From Clostridia bacterium (GTDB lineage Bacteria > Bacillota > Clostridia > Oscillospirales > RGIG577), in NCBI GenBank assembly GCA_017513095.1, contig JAFWDJ010000024.1, forward strand, positions 6,073-70,072: 64,000 bases of DNA, given 5' to 3'. A program made the translations under genes and the position numbers. Position 1 is the first letter of the stretch, and each line of letters starts with the position of its first letter. The notes under the pieces are model-generated. The model did no database searches. It was not told the DNA's origin and saw only the letters and a program-made list of their open reading frames with translations. Of this stretch, positions 5,702 to 61,151 are shown piece after piece.

Positions 5702-6170
5702 TTGTTTTAATAATAAGCTCCTGTGCGCCGTATCGCACTTTAAGCGCCGCTTCGTCTATCGCGTTCCGGTCGTCCTCGCCGTAAAGTGTTATTTCAAGCG
5801 ACTTGACGCTTTGCTCGCCGTCAAGCCGCGCTTTTACGTTTCCCGGGCGCACGCCGTATTCTTCTAATAGATATGCTTTTACATCCTCGCATATTCCCTC
5901 TTCGGCAAATCTTATTACCTGCATTTTATACGTATCGTTAAAATCGCGGCCATCAGGACTTTCGGTAATAGTGCCGACGTCGGGCGTTATGTACCCCACC
6001 GCACCGTTTGCGAGGTCTTTAAGCGGAGATAAAAGCGCCGCAAGCGCGATAAGGCCGCAGATAAGCTTTAGCGGCGCGCCGAGCGCGCCTTTCGGAAAGA
6101 GAAATCTTATTATCCCCAAAAAAACGCTCAGCGCGATAAGCGTTACGATAAAGGATTTTATATAAGCCAT
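5688..6170 (-). CDS. spoIIIAF: Stage III sporulation protein AF
   Basis: 160 aa with two N-terminal TM helices. Operon position between AE and AG. Confidence 0.75.
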   Translation of the reverse strand: MAYIKSFIVTLIALSVFLGIIRFLFPKGALGAPLKLICGLIALAALLSPLKDLANGAVGYITPDVGTITESPDGRDFNDTYKMQVIRFAEEGICEDVKAYLLEEYGVRPGNVKARLDGEQSVKSLEITLYGEDDRNAIDEAALKVRYGAQELIIKTNESG

Positions 6171-9495: not shown

Positions 9496-11544
<2,049 letters not shown>

Positions 11545-50557: not shown

Positions 50558-51328
50558 TTAGCGGCCGCCGTATTCGCTGCCATAATAGAGAACTTTTCTG
50601 TTCTCGATCTTACGATGATTAACGTCAATAATATATTCGTTTGAATATTGAGCCATCCAATATTCGCCAGACAACTTGCGATTAAGCAGTTTGTCCATCT
50701 CTTCTGATAGATATTCATAATTTGAGTTCCAAACACAAAGTTCTTCGCCGCTCAGTTCAGAATCGTTATCGTTGGCAGGCAGCACGGGATCGGATTTTAC
50801 GTATTCAATCAAGGCATGCAGCTTGTGTGATTCCCTACCTTCGCCCTGCTGTTTATAAAACTCTTCAAAAGAACTCAACAAATCATCGCATTCGATCCAC
50901 ATTGCAGAGTCGCCTGAACCGTACTTGGAATTCCGGATTACGATAGTTTCCAGATTATTCGCCGATATCCCTTGCTTTTTACAGTAATTGAGAAAACGGT
51001 TTATCTCTTTAGGAACCGCGTCTTGTAGCGGTATTTTTGGATATTCTCCATCTTCATCACATAATCCTTCAATGATTGCGGCGCTGAACAGCAGCTCGCA
51101 TAATTCTTCAAGGCTTTTTGCTGTGGATAATGATTTGCCGCCAAAACAGATCTCGCCGTTTTTAACTTCAGGAATAAGGTAAATGCTCTCCGCCGCTTCA
51201 TCTCCCCCATCTTCAGGGCTGACAGCATGCCAAAAATCCGCCATTTTCTTATTCTCGTCAATCAGATATATCTCCAGAATATAGCTTGCACTGCTCGAAT
51301 TGGTCACAAAATCCGTGCGTATTTTCAC
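50558..51328 (-). CDS. FVTNSSS-motif protein, paralog 3 (unknown function)
   Basis: 256 aa. GTG start after GAGGA. N-terminus MKIRTDFVTNSSSASYILEI is shared with the ORFs at 51988-52815 and 55027-55698. Confidence 0.75.
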   Translation of the reverse strand: MKIRTDFVTNSSSASYILEIYLIDENKKMADFWHAVSPEDGGDEAAESIYLIPEVKNGEICFGGKSLSTAKSLEELCELLFSAAIIEGLCDEDGEYPKIPLQDAVPKEINRFLNYCKKQGISANNLETIVIRNSKYGSGDSAMWIECDDLLSSFEEFYKQQGEGRESHKLHALIEYVKSDPVLPANDNDSELSGEELCVWNSNYEYLSEEMDKLLNRKLSGEYWMAQYSNEYIIDVNHRKIENRKVLYYGSEYGGR

Positions 51329-51465
51329 TTTAGGTCCTCATTTCTTTATTGAAATATTGATAAAACCAAGCACGGGGCAACGGCTGGTCCTTGAATATTA
51401 TTATATGCTGCCGCCCTTAAGACAGGCAAATCCTTTGCCAAAAACGCGCTCTCTCTCGCGGCGTA

Positions 51466-51618
51466 TCACCGTTTGTCTGCGGCGATATAAATATCGGGAG
51501 CTTTCGTATAATTTTTACGTGAGAGGTTTTGCAAAGCGCACCTTATGCAGTTCACCGGGAAACCGCAGCTCGGGCACACGCCGTCCTCCATAGGCGTACC
51601 GCAGCGCGGACAATCCAT
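51466..51618 (-). CDS. Mini zinc-ribbon protein, copy 1 (50 aa, absent from the ORF track)
   Basis: MDCPRCGTPMEDGVCPSCGFPVNCIRCALQNLSRKNYTKAPDIYIAADKR. GGAGGAG RBS 5 nt upstream. The first 24 codons are duplicated at 55749-55853, with mostly synonymous differences. Confidence 0.65.
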   Translation of the reverse strand: MDCPRCGTPMEDGVCPSCGFPVNCIRCALQNLSRKNYTKAPDIYIAADKR

Positions 51619-51635
51619 ATTTACTCCTCCTTTTC
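51547..51635 (-). repeat. About 89-nt repeat (RBS + zinc-ribbon coding start), copy 1
   Basis: About 90% identical (7 mismatches in the 72 coding nt by manual alignment) to 55782-55870. Confidence 0.8.
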
Positions 51636-51987: not shown

Positions 51988-52815
51988 TCACACCCCCGCG
52001 AGCCAATCGAAAATCATCTCGAAATCATTTTCCGAAATTATAGGGATGTTAAGCTCCAAGGCTTCTTTTATTTCCGCAGTAGTAGATTTCGGATCGTTGG
52101 TTATTAAATAGTCAACATTTCTCGAAATCGTACTAACGACAGTACCGCCGAACGCATCGATAAAATCTTCTGCATCTTCTCTATAAACGCAATTTTCAGC
52201 AATAAAAAATCTTTTGCCTTTAAATGCATGTATATCTAAGCCGCTTGTCTCACTGAAAACGCTTCCGCTGCGCATATGCAAACAAATGCTTTCCCATTCT
52301 TCTTCCGCACTTCCATCGAATTTTTCATATACGTGCGGTTTGACTTCTTTGGTCAAGAGTTTTACCGTGCCGCCATAACGCACGAATTCTCCCCATGCTT
52401 TGTGTGTTTGGGTAATGGTAATGAACGAAATGTCTGATGTGTTGAAAAAAGAAGATCTTAAGGCGCTTTCAAAATCATCAAGGTCTTTAGTCATTTTTTT
52501 CAAAAAATCATCATCATATTTTTGGCTTAGTTTTTTTAAGCTTTCATTAGGACATTCTTCGTCGCTTTCCGGGTCAGTGTAATCTAAAAGCGTAACAGAA
52601 TCAGTCAGTGCTTTTGCCAAATCGGAAACAGAATCGATGCCGGTCAAAGCTTTCAGATTTGCCACATTAAAGCTTGCTTCACCGCCGCCATATGTATAGG
52701 TATCTGTAGGATCGATCTCGACCCACACTTTTTTATCATTTGGACCCATAACTTCGATTACGACGGAAAAACTGCTGCTTGAGCTGTTTGTCACAAAATC
52801 AGTTCTGAATTTCAT
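51988..52815 (-). CDS. FVTNSSS-motif protein, paralog 2, fused to a C-terminal BRCT domain
   Basis: 275 aa. N-terminus MKFRTDFVTNSSSSSFSVVIEV. C-terminus FKGKRFFIAE...GGTVVSTISRNVDYLITND...NIPIISENDF aligns with the LigA BRCT in this window. Confidence 0.8.
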   Translation of the reverse strand: MKFRTDFVTNSSSSSFSVVIEVMGPNDKKVWVEIDPTDTYTYGGGEASFNVANLKALTGIDSVSDLAKALTDSVTLLDYTDPESDEECPNESLKKLSQKYDDDFLKKMTKDLDDFESALRSSFFNTSDISFITITQTHKAWGEFVRYGGTVKLLTKEVKPHVYEKFDGSAEEEWESICLHMRSGSVFSETSGLDIHAFKGKRFFIAENCVYREDAEDFIDAFGGTVVSTISRNVDYLITNDPKSTTAEIKEALELNIPIISENDFEMIFDWLAGV

Positions 52816-52838
52816 GTTGAATCTTCCTTTCCGTTAAA

Positions 52839-53915
52839 TTATTTTGTTCTTTCTTCGCTGCCGCAGAAGACGATTTGTGGCATAAGCGGGCATCCGCCCA
52901 TGCATAAGGCTTTTTTTTCGCAGCCGGGGCAGGCCGCGCGCATTTTATCGCGGAAACGCTCGAAGGGCTCGCTGTTCCACGCGTCTTCGATTGAAACTTC
53001 TTCGCCAAGCCGTACCTCATAGCGTTTATTCTGGTCGAAGGAGCACGGCACCATGACCATATCCGCGCCGATGTAGCAGCTGAAGCGCCCGCCCTCGCAC
53101 GTATCGAGAGACTCGGGCATGATGCGTTTGCAGAAGTTCAGCGCGCCGGGCACGTTGCAGGAGTCCATGCCCACCTTGAATGAATGGTGCTTGTCTACCT
53201 GAGAAAAGAACTTGGCCACGCGGGGATCGTTAACGTCCAGCACGTTTGACTGTGACCCCTGTCCCGCCGGCTTGTGCAGAAGAAAGATCACCGCGTTGAT
53301 TCCCTGAGGAAAGTCGTCTCGCTCGAGCCTGTCGATGGCCTCGTCGATGCTGTTCCGGCCGAGTACGTAGTGGATATTTGTCTTCACGCCCGCACAAAGC
53401 AGCATCCGAACGGCGTTTAGTGTATACTCGCTTCGATACCAGCTTACAGCGACTGCGCCGCAATACTTTTTGCAGAGAGCGGCAATTTCCGGCGTCATGC
53501 CGTAGCCTGAGGTCGTGAAGTTTGGTACAAGGCAGTTTTCCCGGCTGATGCGCAGCAGGTCTTCAAAATGTTCGTGCTGATCGGGGTCGCCCCTGCCGCC
53601 CAGCGCAAGCTGGTTGCAGCGGCCGCGGCACTGCTTTGCAATCAGACGGAAGTTTTCAACCGTCATATTGGGCTGCTCCACCAAAAGACCGCTCTGATAG
53701 CACCCGATGCCGGCCTTTGCGCAGAGACCCGTTCTGCCGTGGATGCAGTGCCCCATAACACCGACGTCGATAAGATGCGGAAACGACGCCATAAACGGAT
53801 CGACTCCGGTGTCGCGCCCGTTTTCGTCAAGCACGCCCGTGCGTATATATGCGCCCGTGTCGGTGTCAAAGGCGGATTTAAAATGATATTTCTTGTCGTC
53901 GATTATGTATTTCAT
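52839..53915 (-). CDS. Radical SAM/SPASM-domain enzyme with non-canonical N-terminal Cys spacing
   Basis: 358 aa. CIHGRTGLCAKAGIGC (Cx7Cx6C) where CxxxCxxC is expected. GGE-like ALGGRGDP and TNG-like NFTTSGYG. SPASM Cys pattern CEGGRFSCYIGADMVMVPC...CPGCEKKALCMGGCP. Confidence 0.75.
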   Translation of the reverse strand: MKYIIDDKKYHFKSAFDTDTGAYIRTGVLDENGRDTGVDPFMASFPHLIDVGVMGHCIHGRTGLCAKAGIGCYQSGLLVEQPNMTVENFRLIAKQCRGRCNQLALGGRGDPDQHEHFEDLLRISRENCLVPNFTTSGYGMTPEIAALCKKYCGAVAVSWYRSEYTLNAVRMLLCAGVKTNIHYVLGRNSIDEAIDRLERDDFPQGINAVIFLLHKPAGQGSQSNVLDVNDPRVAKFFSQVDKHHSFKVGMDSCNVPGALNFCKRIMPESLDTCEGGRFSCYIGADMVMVPCSFDQNKRYEVRLGEEVSIEDAWNSEPFERFRDKMRAACPGCEKKALCMGGCPLMPQIVFCGSEERTK

Positions 53916-53971: not shown

Positions 53972-55012
53972 TCATTCCTGAGTCGAATCAGACGGCGTCA
54001 GATACTGCGCGATAAACTCCTGCTCGCTGATAATAGGAATGCCGTCTGATTGTGCTTTACGTATCTTTGTTGTGCCTGAGTCCGGAAAATTGGTGATAAG
54101 AGCAGTCGTTTTGGAGGATACGCTTCCGCTCAGCTTTCCGCCGTTATGGAGAATTATCTCTTTTAACGCATCCCTGCTTGAAAAATTGAACAGATCGCCT
54201 GTGACGACAAAGGTCTTTCCCGAAAGTTTTTCAAATTCTCCTAAGAGCGCTGCATTAAGCCCTTGAAAGGAAAAAGATATCTTTCCCGAAAGCTTTTCAG
54301 ATTCTCCGGATGAAATGTTTACGGCCTTCTGTTTTTTCGGTTTTTCCGGCGGAACATAAAATACTTCGTTTTCGGGATAATGAATTTCGATAGTTTTGTA
54401 AGGAGCGGTCAGCCGTTTCTTCGGGTAAGGTTTGGAAGGCACGATTTCATCTGAGCACATTTGTTTTTTTCCGTCAAAAAGCACGTAGTCCTGCCTCTCC
54501 CACATGGGCTTTTCTTTAAACTCGTAAAGCTTCCCTTTGATTCTGAAGCTGTCCTCAGTCGGATCGTGAATAATACTCCATCTGTCACGAGCATAAAAAT
54601 CACACGTGTCAATGTAACGCATAACGGTAACAGAAGGATATCCGCTCTCAGAGTACGCAAGGTAGACAGTTCTGTTTTTCCAGTCTTCCGCGAAAAATAC
54701 CGCCTTCATATATGGATAATTTTCCAGCACATAAGGCACATGTGCGCTTTCGCATTCAAATTGAGCAATTCCATCGCATAACGTGTCTATTATCTTCCCG
54801 GGATTATCGTTATCGGGCCAGATTGTCCTGACCGCATCCAGTACGTCGAATTCCAATCCTCTGAAAACAGCCCCTGAGAAATAAGCAGTTTTCTCATATT
54901 GCTCTTTTGCGGCGGCGTCGGTAGAACCTGCTGTAAACGGGCACATCCTGCCTTCCGAAGTAAGCCTTTCAATAAATGCGTCTTTCTTTTCTTTTGCAGT
55001 ACTGTAATTCAT
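53972..55012 (-). CDS. Unknown N-terminal domain + C-terminal BRCT domain protein
   Basis: 346 aa. C-terminus LSGKTFVVTGDL...GGKLSGSVSSKTTALITN...GIPIISEQEF closely parallels the LigA BRCT (FTVVVTGTL...[18 protein letters not shown]...[10 protein letters not shown]). Confidence 0.8.
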   Translation of the reverse strand: MNYSTAKEKKDAFIERLTSEGRMCPFTAGSTDAAAKEQYEKTAYFSGAVFRGLEFDVLDAVRTIWPDNDNPGKIIDTLCDGIAQFECESAHVPYVLENYPYMKAVFFAEDWKNRTVYLAYSESGYPSVTVMRYIDTCDFYARDRWSIIHDPTEDSFRIKGKLYEFKEKPMWERQDYVLFDGKKQMCSDEIVPSKPYPKKRLTAPYKTIEIHYPENEVFYVPPEKPKKQKAVNISSGESEKLSGKISFSFQGLNAALLGEFEKLSGKTFVVTGDLFNFSSRDALKEIILHNGGKLSGSVSSKTTALITNFPDSGTTKIRKAQSDGIPIISEQEFIAQYLTPSDSTQE

Positions 55013-55026
55013 TATAATCCCCCCTG

Positions 55027-55698
55027 TTAAACCAAATCAAAATCTGATGTATCAAAGTATTCGCCGGTTCTCAGGTTCAGTCGTTTTATCTCTACGCCGC
55101 TTACGCGTCCCGGACCATATGAGCTGCACAGACGTTTTGCGAGCGTTTCCAAAGACCGACCGCCCCAATTATAACGACATACAGCCGCATTTCCGAATGA
55201 TTCTCCAATTGCGTCCGAAACTGTATTGATGTATGTTACCATTTCTGCTTCGGCACGCATTTTTTCTATTCCGGTCTGGGCTTTAAGATACTTTTGGGCC
55301 AGTTCAATGAGTATTATGTCGTTGTCTGCAATAATATCCGCCATCTCTCCCCATGCGTCGTAGCGTCGCTTCACCGTTATTTCGACAATATCCCGAACGC
55401 TGTTGAACTTAGTGCATGCTTCTCTTATAAATCTTTCCTTTTTACGGCGCAGCGGGTATGAGTCCGTGCTTTCCCAGTAATCATGAATTGAGCCTGCAAG
55501 CCATGTCGCCAGCTCGTTCACGGAAGAAAGGTGAGAATTGATGTTTTTCAAATCTCCGTTAAAAACCATTGTGGAGCCTCCGTCTGAGGTCTGCCTGTTC
55601 TCCGAAATGCTGACATATCGATTTGGCGAGCTGATCATAACCTCCACTGTAAAATTGCTTGAACTGGAATTTGTCACAAAGTCTGTGCGTATTTTCAT
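55027..55698 (-). CDS. FVTNSSS-motif protein, paralog 1 (unknown function)
   Basis: 223 aa. ATG after GGAGG. N-terminus MKIRTDFVTNSSSSNFTVEVMI. Shares an I-x-I-x(n)-WGE block with paralog 2. Confidence 0.75.
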   Translation of the reverse strand: MKIRTDFVTNSSSSNFTVEVMISSPNRYVSISENRQTSDGGSTMVFNGDLKNINSHLSSVNELATWLAGSIHDYWESTDSYPLRRKKERFIREACTKFNSVRDIVEITVKRRYDAWGEMADIIADNDIILIELAQKYLKAQTGIEKMRAEAEMVTYINTVSDAIGESFGNAAVCRYNWGGRSLETLAKRLCSSYGPGRVSGVEIKRLNLRTGEYFDTSDFDLV

Positions 55699-55748
55699 TA
55701 TACCTGCCTCCTTGCCTTTCTAAATATGCTGTAAAACCGTGTTTTCTC

Positions 55749-55853
55749 TTACGCTTTGTCCTGAACTTTTAATTCTGCGTGACAATTCACCGGGAAACCG
55801 CAGTTAGGGCAAACGCCGTTCTCCATAGGCGTACCGCAGCGCGGGCAATCCAT
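55749..55853 (-). CDS. Mini zinc-ribbon protein, copy 2 (34 aa, absent from the ORF track)
   Basis: MDCPRCGTPMENGVCPNCGFPVNCHAELKVQDKA. GGAGGA RBS. Lies 50 nt upstream of paralog 1. Confidence 0.65.
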   Translation of the reverse strand: MDCPRCGTPMENGVCPNCGFPVNCHAELKVQDKA

Positions 55854-55870
55854 AAGTATTCCTCCTTTTT
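55782..55870 (-). repeat. About 89-nt repeat, copy 2
   Basis: See 51547-51635. Confidence 0.8.
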
Positions 55871-57376: not shown

Positions 57377-58231
57377 CTACTCTGAAACCAGAGTATCAAA
57401 ATATTCATCCTCGAATTCTTCTCTGCTCTTTATCCCCAGTTCTTTTATACGCTCCACCGCATTTTTAAACGATTCTTCATCTATTTTTACCGGGAATATC
57501 TCGGTAAACTCACTTAAACTGAGCTCAAACAATTTTCTCTCTCCAAACAATTCTTCAATAGAATCGTAGTAATAATTTTCATAATCATCACTATCGAATT
57601 CAAATAGTTTTTTGAACTTTTCATAAGAAAGTATGTCTGCAACATAATCGAAATAGGCAGAATCGAAATAGTCACTATCGGGGTCTGCCCATATCGTTAC
57701 CACTAACGGAATCATCGGCAGTGGGCCCGAATATTTGGTGTATGAGGAGAATGATTTGGTTTTTGGATCGTAAAACCTTCCCCAAATCCCTTCACTATCA
57801 TCATCTTCTTCATTCTCTTGGAGGTCCTCTCCAAATGGCTTGTAGTCGAAGCTTAAGAATAACCGTCCGTCCTTAAGCTCCGCATCTAAAGATTGTTTTG
57901 AACCGGGATCAAATCCTGAAATTGATCCTCTAAAATAACAGGTGGGCGCTGTGTCAGCAATTCTTTGGAAAAGGTCACAATCATCCTCGAGAAGACCGTA
58001 CCAGACTCCATACGGACCGCTGAGACCTAAAGACATTTCTCCCGATTTCCAGCATGTGTCTACTTCCTTTTCAGGATCGCCTATCGTTACATCCAAATAC
58101 CAGCAGTCGTGTTTTTCTCTGTATTGCTTTTTCCGATCATTTGCGTAATGCCTAAGCACCTTCATAACCTCCAGACACTCTTCTTTTGTTCCCTTAACGG
58201 TAATCACCGTTGTAAAATCAGCTGCTCCCAT
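57377..58231 (-). CDS. Acidic hypothetical protein (first gene of the low-GC cluster)
   Basis: 284 aa. GGAGG RBS. Asp/Glu/Tyr/Phe-rich C-terminal half. About 40% GC in a spot count. No family recognised. Confidence 0.65.
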   Translation of the reverse strand: MGAADFTTVITVKGTKEECLEVMKVLRHYANDRKKQYREKHDCWYLDVTIGDPEKEVDTCWKSGEMSLGLSGPYGVWYGLLEDDCDLFQRIADTAPTCYFRGSISGFDPGSKQSLDAELKDGRLFLSFDYKPFGEDLQENEEDDDSEGIWGRFYDPKTKSFSSYTKYSGPLPMIPLVVTIWADPDSDYFDSAYFDYVADILSYEKFKKLFEFDSDDYENYYYDSIEELFGERKLFELSLSEFTEIFPVKIDEESFKNAVERIKELGIKSREEFEDEYFDTLVSE

Positions 58232-58578: not shown

Positions 58579-61151
58579 CTATCGATCCAAGCGTTTCGCC
58601 CTATACGGCACGCGGATGCTGCCGTTTTCGGGGACGAAACGCTCCGCGTGGGACGCGTTTTTGTCGGCAGGAAGGAATGAAATGCCAGAGTCGTAGCATT
58701 CCAGGGCAAGCTTCAGGATTTTTATACGTTCCGACTCAATACATCTTTCGCCCTGCTTTCCCACAATTCGATTATACTCCTCATAGGCGCGCGCGCGGCC
58801 TTCGGCGAGGACGCCGTAGAGGACGCCGTAATCGAATTTTGGCTCATCAAACTCATCAATGCACGAAAGAACGGCGGCAAAGAACGCGGCGGGGCGGTTT
58901 ATTCTGTACCATACCTTCCTGAGATCGTTTATCACGGATCCGATCGCGTGCGCCTTTGGAAAAAGATAATATATCTCCCTCATCGATGCGATTAACCGTT
59001 CGGGGACGCCGTGTTGCTTCATTATTTCAAGCTGACTTTCATCAAAGCCGTGACGCGCCCTGCCCATTCTCACGTATTGTGCTATGGAATACGCGTCTTT
59101 TCGTCCTACTCCGTATCTCATCAGAGAAAGCATGACGTCCTCGCGAAACGCGATAGGCCCGCCGCAGTCGGCGCACGCCCCGATAAGCTCTCCGGGATCG
59201 TCGGAGCGGTCGAAGACGCCGTGATCAAAGCCAAAGATATTTACAAGGTCGGAGAATTTTGTCGGCTTTACGGCGGAGATAAATCTTTTAAAACTCTCCG
59301 AGCCGAAAGAAATGCCCTCAAGACTTGCGGCGCCGAAATACGAGGCGAAATCTATATCGCCAATATCAATGCTTTCTGCCGGCACGCCCGAATACTCTTC
59401 CATAAGCTTAAGCTCCGAAAAAAGCGTAAAGTCGTACATACATATTCTTTCAAGTGGGAGATAACGACAATCAATAAGCGTTATAGGCTTGACTTTGCCG
59501 CAAGAGCGTGACAGATACGTGTACCGTGTCGGTGAAAAGTCGGATATATCATATCCCCGGGGAACGATGAGAAAGGCTCCGGGGTGTCGGCCGCCCGCTA
59601 CATGCACCGACGCCATTTTTTTGACAATGCGTTCTCTTTGTCCGAGGCCTATGGACGTATTCGTTTCTTCGCAGTATTTATCTACCAGATCCGAAATACA
59701 CCGCTCGCCCATCCGTCCGTAAATCGTAGACTCCGAACCGGCGAGAACCGTGTTGTTCCTGCCGAACACCTCTTCAAGGCAATCAAGAATTTCCGTTCGG
59801 ATATCTTCGGCAAAGTTAAAATAAAACTCAGGTGATATGTCCCCTTCGTACCCGGTGAAGAATTCGCACGGGAGATTATGCCCGTCGCCCGTGTAAGGTG
59901 TGCCGCAGTCGGGACAAAGGCGCCTTTCGACGCCGAAGGTGACAAGATCGTATCCCGAGGCGCACTCCGTCTCATCGACGAATTCTACCCTTTTGCAATT
60001 CGGGCAGAAATAATGCGGCGGCAGAGGATTTGTCTCCGTTATGCCCAAAAGATACGAAACGAACGAACTTCCGACGCATCCGCTAAGCTTGTGAATATAG
60101 CCTTTACCGCGGCTTTTGTCGGACATTTTCGCCGCAAGCAGATAGTGTGACCAGCCGTCCGAACTGTCAATCTTTTCGAACTCGTCCGCTATGCGCAGGC
60201 GTATGATATCCGGCGCCGCTTCGCCGTATTTTTCGGCGGAGGCACTCAGAGCGCGCGATATGACCTTGCTTCGCGCGTAAGGAAGACAGAGCGTCGGCTT
60301 TTCAAACGGGAGCGGGTCGAAGCTTTCGACCGCTTCCGCGATGAGGTTCGTGTTTTCTATGACCGCCGTTTCCGTCATATCCCCAAGGAACGCAAAATCG
60401 CGAAGCATCTCCTCGGTCGACTTCATAAAGGCGATATTTTCATCCTGCCCGTCCTTCTGATGGAGGATCTTAAAGCAGAGCTCGTCTTCCTTTGTTATGC
60501 AGTTCGCGCGGCTTACCGCGGCGGGATGTTTTCCGATGCTCTGAAGGACGCGGACTGCCGCGAGTGCCGCCTCTTTGAGCGCGGCCCCGTCCGCTTCCTC
60601 TGACGAAACCGCCGAAAGCGCGCTTTTTGGGGGCAAGGTGATCTCTGCGTAATCGACGCCGTCAAATAGGACGAAAGCTCGCGCCGGACGTCAGCTTCGC
60701 TTTTATTTACGAAGCTTTGTATATGATCCCACGTGCATTCCCTGCCGATGAGAACGTCCTCTTTGTATTTGAGCACCAAATCCCAATCGATGTACGGCCG
60801 TTGATCGTTTTTAAGGTCCGTCGCCGCTTTTCGGTAACCGGCCGAAATGATAAGGTACACGTTTCTTAATCCGTGCCTCGTTTTGGCAAGCAGTGTTATA
60901 AAGAATTCGCCGCCGTTTTTGTCATGGCATAAAAGCCGCACGCCGAAAATGGCCTTGATTCCCGCATTCGCGCTTTTAACGGCTTCTGAAAGCTTTAAAA
61001 CGGAATGCACGGAGTCGAAATCTGTTATCGCCACGGCGTTTGAGCCGTTTTTTACTGCGAAATCCACGACGTCATCGGGCGTTATCACCGTTTCCCGGTA
61101 TCCGAAGCAGGAGCTTACGCCAAGCTCGATATGTCTTTTTTCGTTTGCCAT
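58579..61151 (-). pseudogene. Truncated, frameshifted PolC-like (PHP + Pol III alpha) paralog
   Basis: Two overlapping ORFs (60513-61151 and 58579-60636). PolC-type zinc module PPHYFCPNCKRVEF...CPDCGTPYTGDGHNLPCEFF. Colinear with PolC to the C-terminus (YLFPKAHAIGSV...ISFLPAD). No exonuclease, OB or N-terminal domains. The reading frame changes near 60671-60690. Confidence 0.7.

Follow-up and report, generated by a model that had tools for sequence, protein, structure and literature searches.

The window described here is a stretch of 64,000 nucleotides (nt) from a Clostridia bacterium (contig JAFWDJ010000024.1). Two small open reading frames (sORFs), A and B, lie on its minus strand and share a Cys-rich N-terminal sequence. 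sORF A (51466-51618) comprises 50 codons, with the ATG at 51618 and the stop codon at 51466-51468. It encodes MDCPRCGTPMEDGVCPSCGFPVNCIRCALQNLSRKNYTKAPDIYIAADKR, which consists of a ribbon, MDCPRCGTPMEDGVCPSCGFPV, and a tail, NCIRCALQNLSRKNYTKAPDIYIAADKR, with a net charge of +4. The predicted Cys4 zinc-ribbon core covers codons 1-22 (51553-51618, minus strand), contains C3, C6, C15 and C18, and conforms to the family consensus given below. sORF B (55749-55853) comprises 34 codons, from the ATG at 55853 to the stop codon at 55749-55751. Its product, MDCPRCGTPMENGVCPNCGFPVNCHAELKVQDKA, consists of MDCPRCGTPMENGVCPNCGFPV followed by a short, non-basic tail, NCHAELKVQDKA. The Shine-Dalgarno sequence GGAGGAG is located 5 nt ahead of the ATG of sORF A (51624-51630), and GGAGGA is located 6 nt ahead of that of sORF B (55860-55865), both on the minus strand. 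An earlier reading of the sequence, referred to here as the original prediction, had placed both ORFs and their ribosome-binding sites on this strand, and they lie exactly there.

A repeat search shows that, within the 8-kb region, no direct repeat is longer than the sORF A/B pair. Copy 1 (51548-51634) and copy 2 (55783-55869) are each 87 nt long, display 90% identity and are spaced by 4235 nt; copy 1 covers the Shine-Dalgarno site and codons 1-24 of sORF A. The similarity begins about 35 nt 5′ of the ATG, takes in the Shine-Dalgarno site and breaks off sharply past codon 24. A hidden Markov model (HMM) of the family built around these sORFs matches the two window ORFs with E=2e-16 and 9e-15, and detects no third copy in the window. 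The exact protein of sORF A is also present in Logan and ENA assemblies.

All genes of the locus are on the minus strand. Their order is a 284-residue acidic protein, a Sel1-repeat protein, sORF B, an FVTNSSS-family protein (223 residues), a BRCT protein (346 residues), a SPASM enzyme resembling radical S-adenosylmethionine (rSAM) proteins (358 residues), an FVTNSSS+BRCT protein (275 residues), sORF A, and another FVTNSSS-family protein (256 residues). The 256-residue FVTNSSS gene (50558-51328) starts 137 nt downstream of sORF A, and the 223-residue one (55027-55698) starts 50 nt downstream of sORF B. The SPASM gene (52839-53915) and the following FVTNSSS+BRCT gene (51988-52815) are a conserved pair of a separate cassette. 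The GC content of the locus is 0.44-0.48, versus about 0.52 in the flanks, where housekeeping genes for an aminotransferase, a DUF815 ATPase, RtcB and a class II tRNA synthetase are found.

Codons 1-24 of sORFs A and B differ at 7 of 72 nt. Five of the changes are synonymous (TGT/TGC, GTG/GTT, CCG/CCT, AAC/AAT and TGC/TGT) and two are conservative replacements, D12N and S17N; the hand count in the original prediction was exact. The Nei-Gojobori method gives S=14.7, N=57.3, a synonymous rate (dS) of 0.455, a non-synonymous rate (dN) of 0.036, and dN/dS=0.08. Under neutrality, p=0.005 for at least 5 of 7 changes being synonymous. Read in the +1 frame, the same differences yield 1 synonymous and 5 non-synonymous changes. 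The original prediction had argued from the substitution pattern that both ORFs are translated, and had proposed a Ka/Ks calculation. The ratio and the neutrality test fit purifying selection, and dN/dS of both the window pair and the family supports coding.

The family data come from 23 distinct 66-nt ribbons on other contigs. Of the 22 codons, 21 vary at the third position, 10 at the first and 9 at the second. Nucleotide identity averages 73%, dS has reached saturation at 1.7, and the pooled dN/dS is 0.105; many of the family loci were found by peptide pattern, so that the family-wide dN is biased downward, a bias from which the window pair and the called-gene search are exempt. Because third positions vary and dS is saturated, the constraint is on the peptide and not on DNA or RNA. 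Close pairs display 9 synonymous versus 2 non-synonymous changes in the ribbon, and 3 versus 6 in the tail. Strong purifying selection acts on the ribbon but not on the tail. A Shine-Dalgarno core, GGAGG or AGGAG, lies about 7-8 nt upstream in 27 of 31 distinct family starts.

An exhaustive search with the family profile across 1.84 billion cluster representatives gave 205 matches, and a word-indexed search of 5.8 billion proteins yielded no more than 9 small proteins. About 130 of the 205 are stand-alone proteins of 34-99 residues (median 48), and in 97 of these 130 the first Cys occupies position 3. Their consensus reads M-x-CPRCG-[TSAE]-x-M-x-G-G-[VI]-C-[PDN]-x-CGFP-[VIM]-[TN]-R-x-[RK]. C3, C6, C15 and C18 are invariant in an alignment of nine close homologues, with rare exceptions elsewhere. 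One exception is the L008 homolog (10001-10135), in which codon 3 is CGT instead of TGT (MDRPRCG...) and the first metal ligand is lost; this may reflect a sequencing error, decay of the copy or a variant with three ligands. The tails cannot otherwise be aligned, yet they contain 24% K+R versus 7% D+E, with a median net charge of +5 and a positive charge in 114 of 130. Their Cys content is 2%. The original prediction described two CxxC knuckles plus further Cys; the CPxCG...CPxCG module is borne out by the family, whereas the extra Cys residues of the window tails are not conserved in it.

Pattern scans of public contigs identified more nucleotide copies in rumen and gut Clostridia, Ruminococcus and Lachnospiraceae. 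The only source name among the family members is 'hypothetical protein [Lachnospiraceae bacterium]', and neither Pfam, NCBIfam nor PADLOC has a model for the family. The larger proteins matched by the family profile are generic DZR or Zn_Ribbon_1 multi-ribbon proteins, and the possibility that the sORFs are a fragment of a larger gene, or that a fusion would reveal their function, was rejected on this ground. A phage or plasmid origin was also rejected. Searches of phage and plasmid record collections by tblastn gave no match to the family, a scan of IMG/VR gave three distant generic ribbons only, and matches to PHROG families are weak. The recurrent one is PHROG 6332, a phage family with a 60-residue profile, which several family members match over the ribbon and the start of the tail with E of 4e-4 to 5e-3. 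sORF A matches no PHROG family, and sORF B has only a weak match to phrog_2622 (E=8e-4). PADLOC returned nothing for the sORFs; membership in a defence system was rejected, as its only output was BRCT-domain matches to the candidate PDC-S48 in neighbouring genes.

Both window copies contain CPRCG-x8-CP(S/N)CG, two CxxC knuckles as in the zinc-ribbon fold class. AlphaFold2 (AF2), run with 8 sequences, assigns a predicted local distance difference test score (pLDDT) of about 80 to residues 1-22, and the tail stays below 50. Judged from the sequences, sORFs A and B very probably belong to a real, translated family of zinc-ribbon microproteins, and are not precursor peptides of an rSAM enzyme. Such a protein possibly serves as an adaptor or sensor.

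Locus L001, from a metagenome, is syntenic with the window. Its SPASM enzyme is 72% identical to that of the window and is followed by a 486-residue FVTNSSS protein and then by a sORF. The L001 sORF copies, at 5921-6043 and 10001-10135, are about 4 kb apart and bracket the SPASM-FVTNSSS block as in the window. The other sORF is located about 4 kb further upstream, where a homolog of the window 284-residue protein follows it. The original prediction made its case depend on conservation of the small ORF in syntenic loci, and L001 keeps both copies. The 284-residue protein itself (57377-58231) is very acidic and lacks any Pfam domain. Over its N-terminal 120 residues it shares 31% identity with a 152-residue protein right after L001 sORF copy 1, and it is part of the same accessory gene pool.

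Elsewhere the neighbours of the sORFs are diverse. They include RNase_T exonuclease, TipAS, PNPOx, DUF3990, KptA/Tpt1, DUF2201, a sigma-70 factor, HIRAN, Fic, SbcC, DUF262, WYL/WCX, LRR_5/BRCT, NUDIX, Macro, SNF2/PLD helicases, AbiEii, and a module of HTH_17 plus tyrosine integrase. The small ORFs that abut the sORF in L111 and L115 are mutually unrelated. A fixed functional partner was rejected after comparison of the neighbours by BLAST and Pfam. The original prediction also linked the sORFs to FVTNSSS genes, and this link does not hold generally: outside the window and L001, no sORF locus carries an FVTNSSS gene.

The sORF is mostly an internal cistron, with upstream gaps often of 11-54 nt, and in about 15 of some 25 distinct contexts the start of the next gene overlaps the sORF stop or lies close against it (-35 to +27 nt). 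This arrangement could mean that the sORF acts in cis only. Its ribosome-binding site would load ribosomes that re-initiate on the downstream gene, and the peptide would be functionless, like ORF-11 of class 1 integrons. The strong, well-spaced Shine-Dalgarno sequences are consistent with such a role, as are the mutually unrelated downstream genes and the poorly constrained tails. However, a purely cis-acting ORF would not hold 22 residues at a dN/dS of about 0.1 with saturated synonymous sites. The downstream genes usually have their own Shine-Dalgarno sequence inside the sORF tail, and the next gene is farther away in the window (50 and 137 nt). Moreover, sORF A is followed by a terminator-like structure and a separate promoter-like site. 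The former consists of two hairpins and then a U-run (51441-51487, minus strand) and overlaps the 3′ end of sORF A. The latter, TTGCCT-18-TATAAT (51400-51429, minus strand), is a consensus match only and lies upstream of the next FVTNSSS gene. Both have counterparts after L001 copy 2: the first hairpin (CGCCGCAGACA...) is also present there, and TTGCC-N-TATAAT is found at the same place. The hairpin folds only weakly in the window (z=-1.3); its L001 counterpart has a stronger fold (z=-3.25). Scanning 49.5-58.6 kb against Rfam identified no relevant known RNA family. We regard a role purely in cis as improbable, although coupling may be an added feature of a functional protein.

The original prediction offered another possibility, that the sORFs are Cys-rich precursor peptides, with a leader and a variable core, that are modified by the SPASM rSAM enzyme as in sactipeptides and ranthipeptides. 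The two window copies lie within 3 kb of the SPASM gene, L001 is arranged alike, and a conserved N-terminus with a variable C-terminus looks like a leader and core. Precursors of the SCIFF/ranthipeptide and sactipeptide type are likewise small Cys-containing ORFs close to a SPASM enzyme. Yet the co-occurrence fails in both directions. A SPASM homolog is found in only 2 of 26 other sORF loci (202 kb covered), and searches by regular expression and by the family HMM detected the sORF in 0 of 6 SPASM-FVTNSSS-BRCT loci, which represent three element types. Unlike in the known precursors, the conserved Cys residues are in canonical CPxCG metal knuckles, and the tail Cys is not conserved. Nor was an RRE or PqqD-like domain detected in the 358-residue enzyme; SPASM is its only Pfam match at E<=1, and divergent RREs can escape HMMs. 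The Cys motif of the enzyme is non-canonical, GHCIHGRTGLCAKAGIGCY (C-x7-C-x6-C).

Two further loci place a family member next to rSAM genes. In contig L029 the same SPASM gene begins 15 nt downstream of the sORF, which indicates that the cassettes get reshuffled. In L109, from an isolate (GCA_000703065.1, 1165-6111), a 36-residue family member lies 22 nt downstream of a His-Xaa-Ser system with HxsD, two radical-SAM enzymes and a 234-residue HxsA-like protein rich in H-x-S repeats; NUDIX, LigT and other genes come after it. Both adjacencies speak for a precursor. The L109 cluster, however, already has its own HxsA-like substrate, and this neighbourhood is probably coincidental. Genes for rSAM enzymes are common in anaerobes, so that a few chance adjacencies are expected. 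Altogether, precursor peptides are a very unlikely identity for the sORFs.

A better substrate candidate is the FVTNSSS protein, because its gene always comes after that of the enzyme and its invariant N-terminal 13 residues are predicted to be disordered. In six loci (L018-L023) the order is SPASM enzyme (356-358 residues), FVTNSSS protein (225-249 residues) and a large BRCT protein, and these loci sit on DNA resembling integrative and conjugative elements or plasmids, or beside helicases and WYL genes. The FVTNSSS family has 81 homologs, none with a functional name or Pfam domain. All begin at M1, and none carries the ribbon. The N-terminus, MKIRTDFVTNSSS, is invariant. The AF2 model has a pLDDT of 89 and a predicted TM-score (pTM) of 0.83, and its first ten residues are the sole low-confidence part. 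A Foldseek comparison of the model with the PDB gave no match (best TM about 0.2). From the model, the FVTNSSS protein may represent a new fold and be a protein substrate of the rSAM enzyme. The SPASM enzyme acts more plausibly, we infer, on the disordered FVTNSSS N-terminus than on the sORFs.

The first 13 codons of the three window FVTNSSS paralogs constitute a 39-nt repeat family (51294-51332, 52781-52819 and 55664-55702). Two repeats are 85% and 62% identical to the reference copy, and the proteins are only 20-25% identical overall. Conservation of the repeats in otherwise diverged proteins points to an extreme constraint on the N-terminal motif. At 85% nucleotide identity for the 13-codon N-termini versus 90% for the sORFs, the stretches are too short to tell whether a sORF and an FVTNSSS gene were duplicated as one unit.

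Knuckles of the CPxCG type are the motif of rubredoxins too. The Cys4 site might thus bind iron, making the sORF product a mini-rubredoxin that carries electrons to nearby radical-SAM or redox enzymes. Some family members are near rSAM clusters, and rubrerythrin- or rubredoxin-like models give weak matches (E of 0.03-0.3), which are not significant. Most contexts, however, have no redox enzyme. The spacer of 8 residues and the missing aromatic core set the sORF product apart from rubredoxins, whose potentials are far too high to reduce rSAM clusters. An electron carrier of this kind is very unlikely.

Least credible is the view that the repeat is not a gene and represents a recombination or attachment site, the cassette boundary of the 4.2-kb block, or the N-terminal stump of a decayed zinc-ribbon gene: same-orientation direct repeats do bracket a 4.2-kb gene block in the window and in L001, and the similarity breaks off abruptly past codon 24, but synonymous sites vary freely across the family, the flanks beyond the Shine-Dalgarno site are not conserved between loci, no integrase is present in the window island, and the approximately 130 small family representatives are complete proteins that begin at the ribbon, the larger matches being generic multi-ribbon DZR proteins. 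A DNA-level element or att site was rejected from the saturated synonymous sites and the unconserved flanks.

Several known systems can be compared with the zinc-ribbon microproteins. Zn_Ribbon_1 (PF13240) and DZR (PF12773), the best Pfam matches of both copies, have the same two CxxC(G) knuckles with a short beta-hairpin between them. The sORF family differs in being stand-alone, beginning at the ribbon and having a basic tail, and in the additional conserved residues R5, T8, M10, G12-G13 and F20-P21-V22. The ribosomal proteins bL32 and eL37 also combine a Cys4 ribbon (CPqC-G...h-iCPNCGy in bL32) with an RNA-binding basic extension. Their ribbons are the top matches of a sequence-profile search of the PDB, with E=0.02-0.1, which is not significant and makes them leads rather than evidence of membership. 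In bL32 the basic part precedes the ribbon, and both proteins are encoded by single-copy housekeeping genes, not by genes of variable islands.

Com of phage Mu is a small Cys4 zinc protein. Its gene overlaps the start of mom, and the protein binds the mRNA and activates mom translation. Com is thus a functional analogue of an operon-embedded ribbon protein acting on a neighbour gene. No homology is shown, however; its Cys spacing is different, and it serves a single dedicated target gene.

The haloarchaeal C(P)XCG micro-proteins, such as HVO_2753 and HVO_0758, have fewer than 70 residues and two C(P)XCG motifs in a single zinc-finger domain (PMC11241148, PMC10716476, PMC6562870). Some of them bind no zinc (PMC11241148). 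The gene for Brz of Halobacterium is directly upstream of, and co-oriented with, bop, whose transcription Brz regulates (PMC2253796). The window sORFs, with 50 and 34 residues and CPRCG plus CPSCG or CPNCG, fit this class, which is descriptive and not a homology family. The haloarchaeal proteins differ in being archaeal, and there is no significant sequence relationship (HVO_2753-like chains, E about 0.2). The sORF family is bacterial and linked to mobile cargo, sometimes has two copies per locus, and has very diverse neighbours.

The zinc-ribbon fold class and the C(P)XCG micro-protein class are known already. A bacterial family with this distinctive ribbon, a basic tail, an operon-embedded position and a link to mobile cargo was not found described in the literature searched. 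The motifs CPNCGFP, CPRCGT and DFVTNSS were unmatched there, the sole two FVTNSSS matches came from unrelated papers, and searches on SPASM with BRCT and on zinc ribbon with coupling gave nothing relevant.

The explanation that we favor is that sORFs A and B are paralogous genes of a widespread microprotein family in gut and rumen Clostridia. The pairs C3/C6 and C15/C18 are predicted to make up two CPxCG knuckles with a single bound metal ion, most likely Zn2+. The metal-stabilised ribbon would be a binding module for one conserved host partner, since the non-Cys residues R5, T8, M10, F20, P21 and V22 are conserved. The tail, usually basic and predicted to be disordered, probably contacts nucleic acid. 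The microprotein would act as a small accessory or regulatory factor, co-transcribed with the surrounding mobile-element cargo operon, and translational coupling to the next gene would be a frequent extra feature. We put the probability of this explanation as a whole at roughly 60%.

Several points weigh against it, besides the downward bias in family-wide dN mentioned above. The best structural overlays of the AF2 ribbon, on the classical zinc ribbons of LysW, Spt4, a RanBP2-type finger and the adenylate-kinase lid with a root-mean-square deviation of 1.1-1.9 Å over 20-27 residues, speak for the fold, but these overlays and the PDB matches are all statistically non-significant, the domain being very small. 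Copies A and B score 19.8 and 23.8 bits with Zn_Ribbon_1, below the Pfam gathering threshold of 25 bits, and 20.0 and 23.7 bits with DZR, below its threshold of 27.3 bits; they are borderline cases, of the same fold class and not formal members. The short, non-basic tail of copy B and the C3R substitution in L008 suggest that some copies may be decaying. The diversity of neighbours is so great that context yields no specific function. The basic bias of the tails could partly stem from purine-rich ribosome-binding regions of overlapping downstream genes.

That the microprotein is a nucleic-acid-binding regulator seems possible, though we would not count on it. A doubtful extension is that the family represents a hitherto unrecognised class of operon-embedded regulators of Clostridia integrative and conjugative elements. 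In that case the ribbon would dock on a conserved host machine, the ribosome or RNA polymerase, and the variable Arg/Lys-rich tail would recognise local mRNA or DNA. The microprotein would then activate or couple expression of the adjacent cargo cassette, like Com or N.

Two other features of the region were recorded. The 346-residue BRCT gene contains a tandem-like repeat of 28 nt (54214-54241 and 54280-54307), 93% identical and 66 nt apart, which corresponds to a duplicated '(E)KLSGK' peptide segment. Beside the low-GC island, at 58579-61151, a PHP-domain ORF (212 residues) and a DNA_pol3_alpha ORF (685 residues) overlap in separate frames. The latter carries a CPNC...CPDC zinc module, and the GC content there, 0.476, resembles that of the island. 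The two ORFs could represent a PolC/DnaE-like polymerase that has been split or frameshifted, or else a polymerase carried by the island.

Genes as small as sORFs A and B are routinely missed, and both window ORFs are under the usual annotation cut-offs. For the locus itself, attention shifts from the sORFs to the uncharacterised FVTNSSS family as the likely partner of the SPASM enzyme, and nothing points to unusual chemistry in the sORF family. Strong selection maintains the 22-residue ribbon across more than 100 sequence clusters, and the ribbon moves together with mobile-element cargo that includes helicases, WYL regulators, BRCT/LRR proteins, NUDIX/Macro/KptA enzymes and integrase modules. 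The extended regulator reading, if true, would explain why the sORFs are scattered, sometimes in two copies, across unrelated cargo arrays. Selection on the ribbon and its travel with mobile cargo define a specific microprotein family of the gut and rumen microbiome that can be put to the test.

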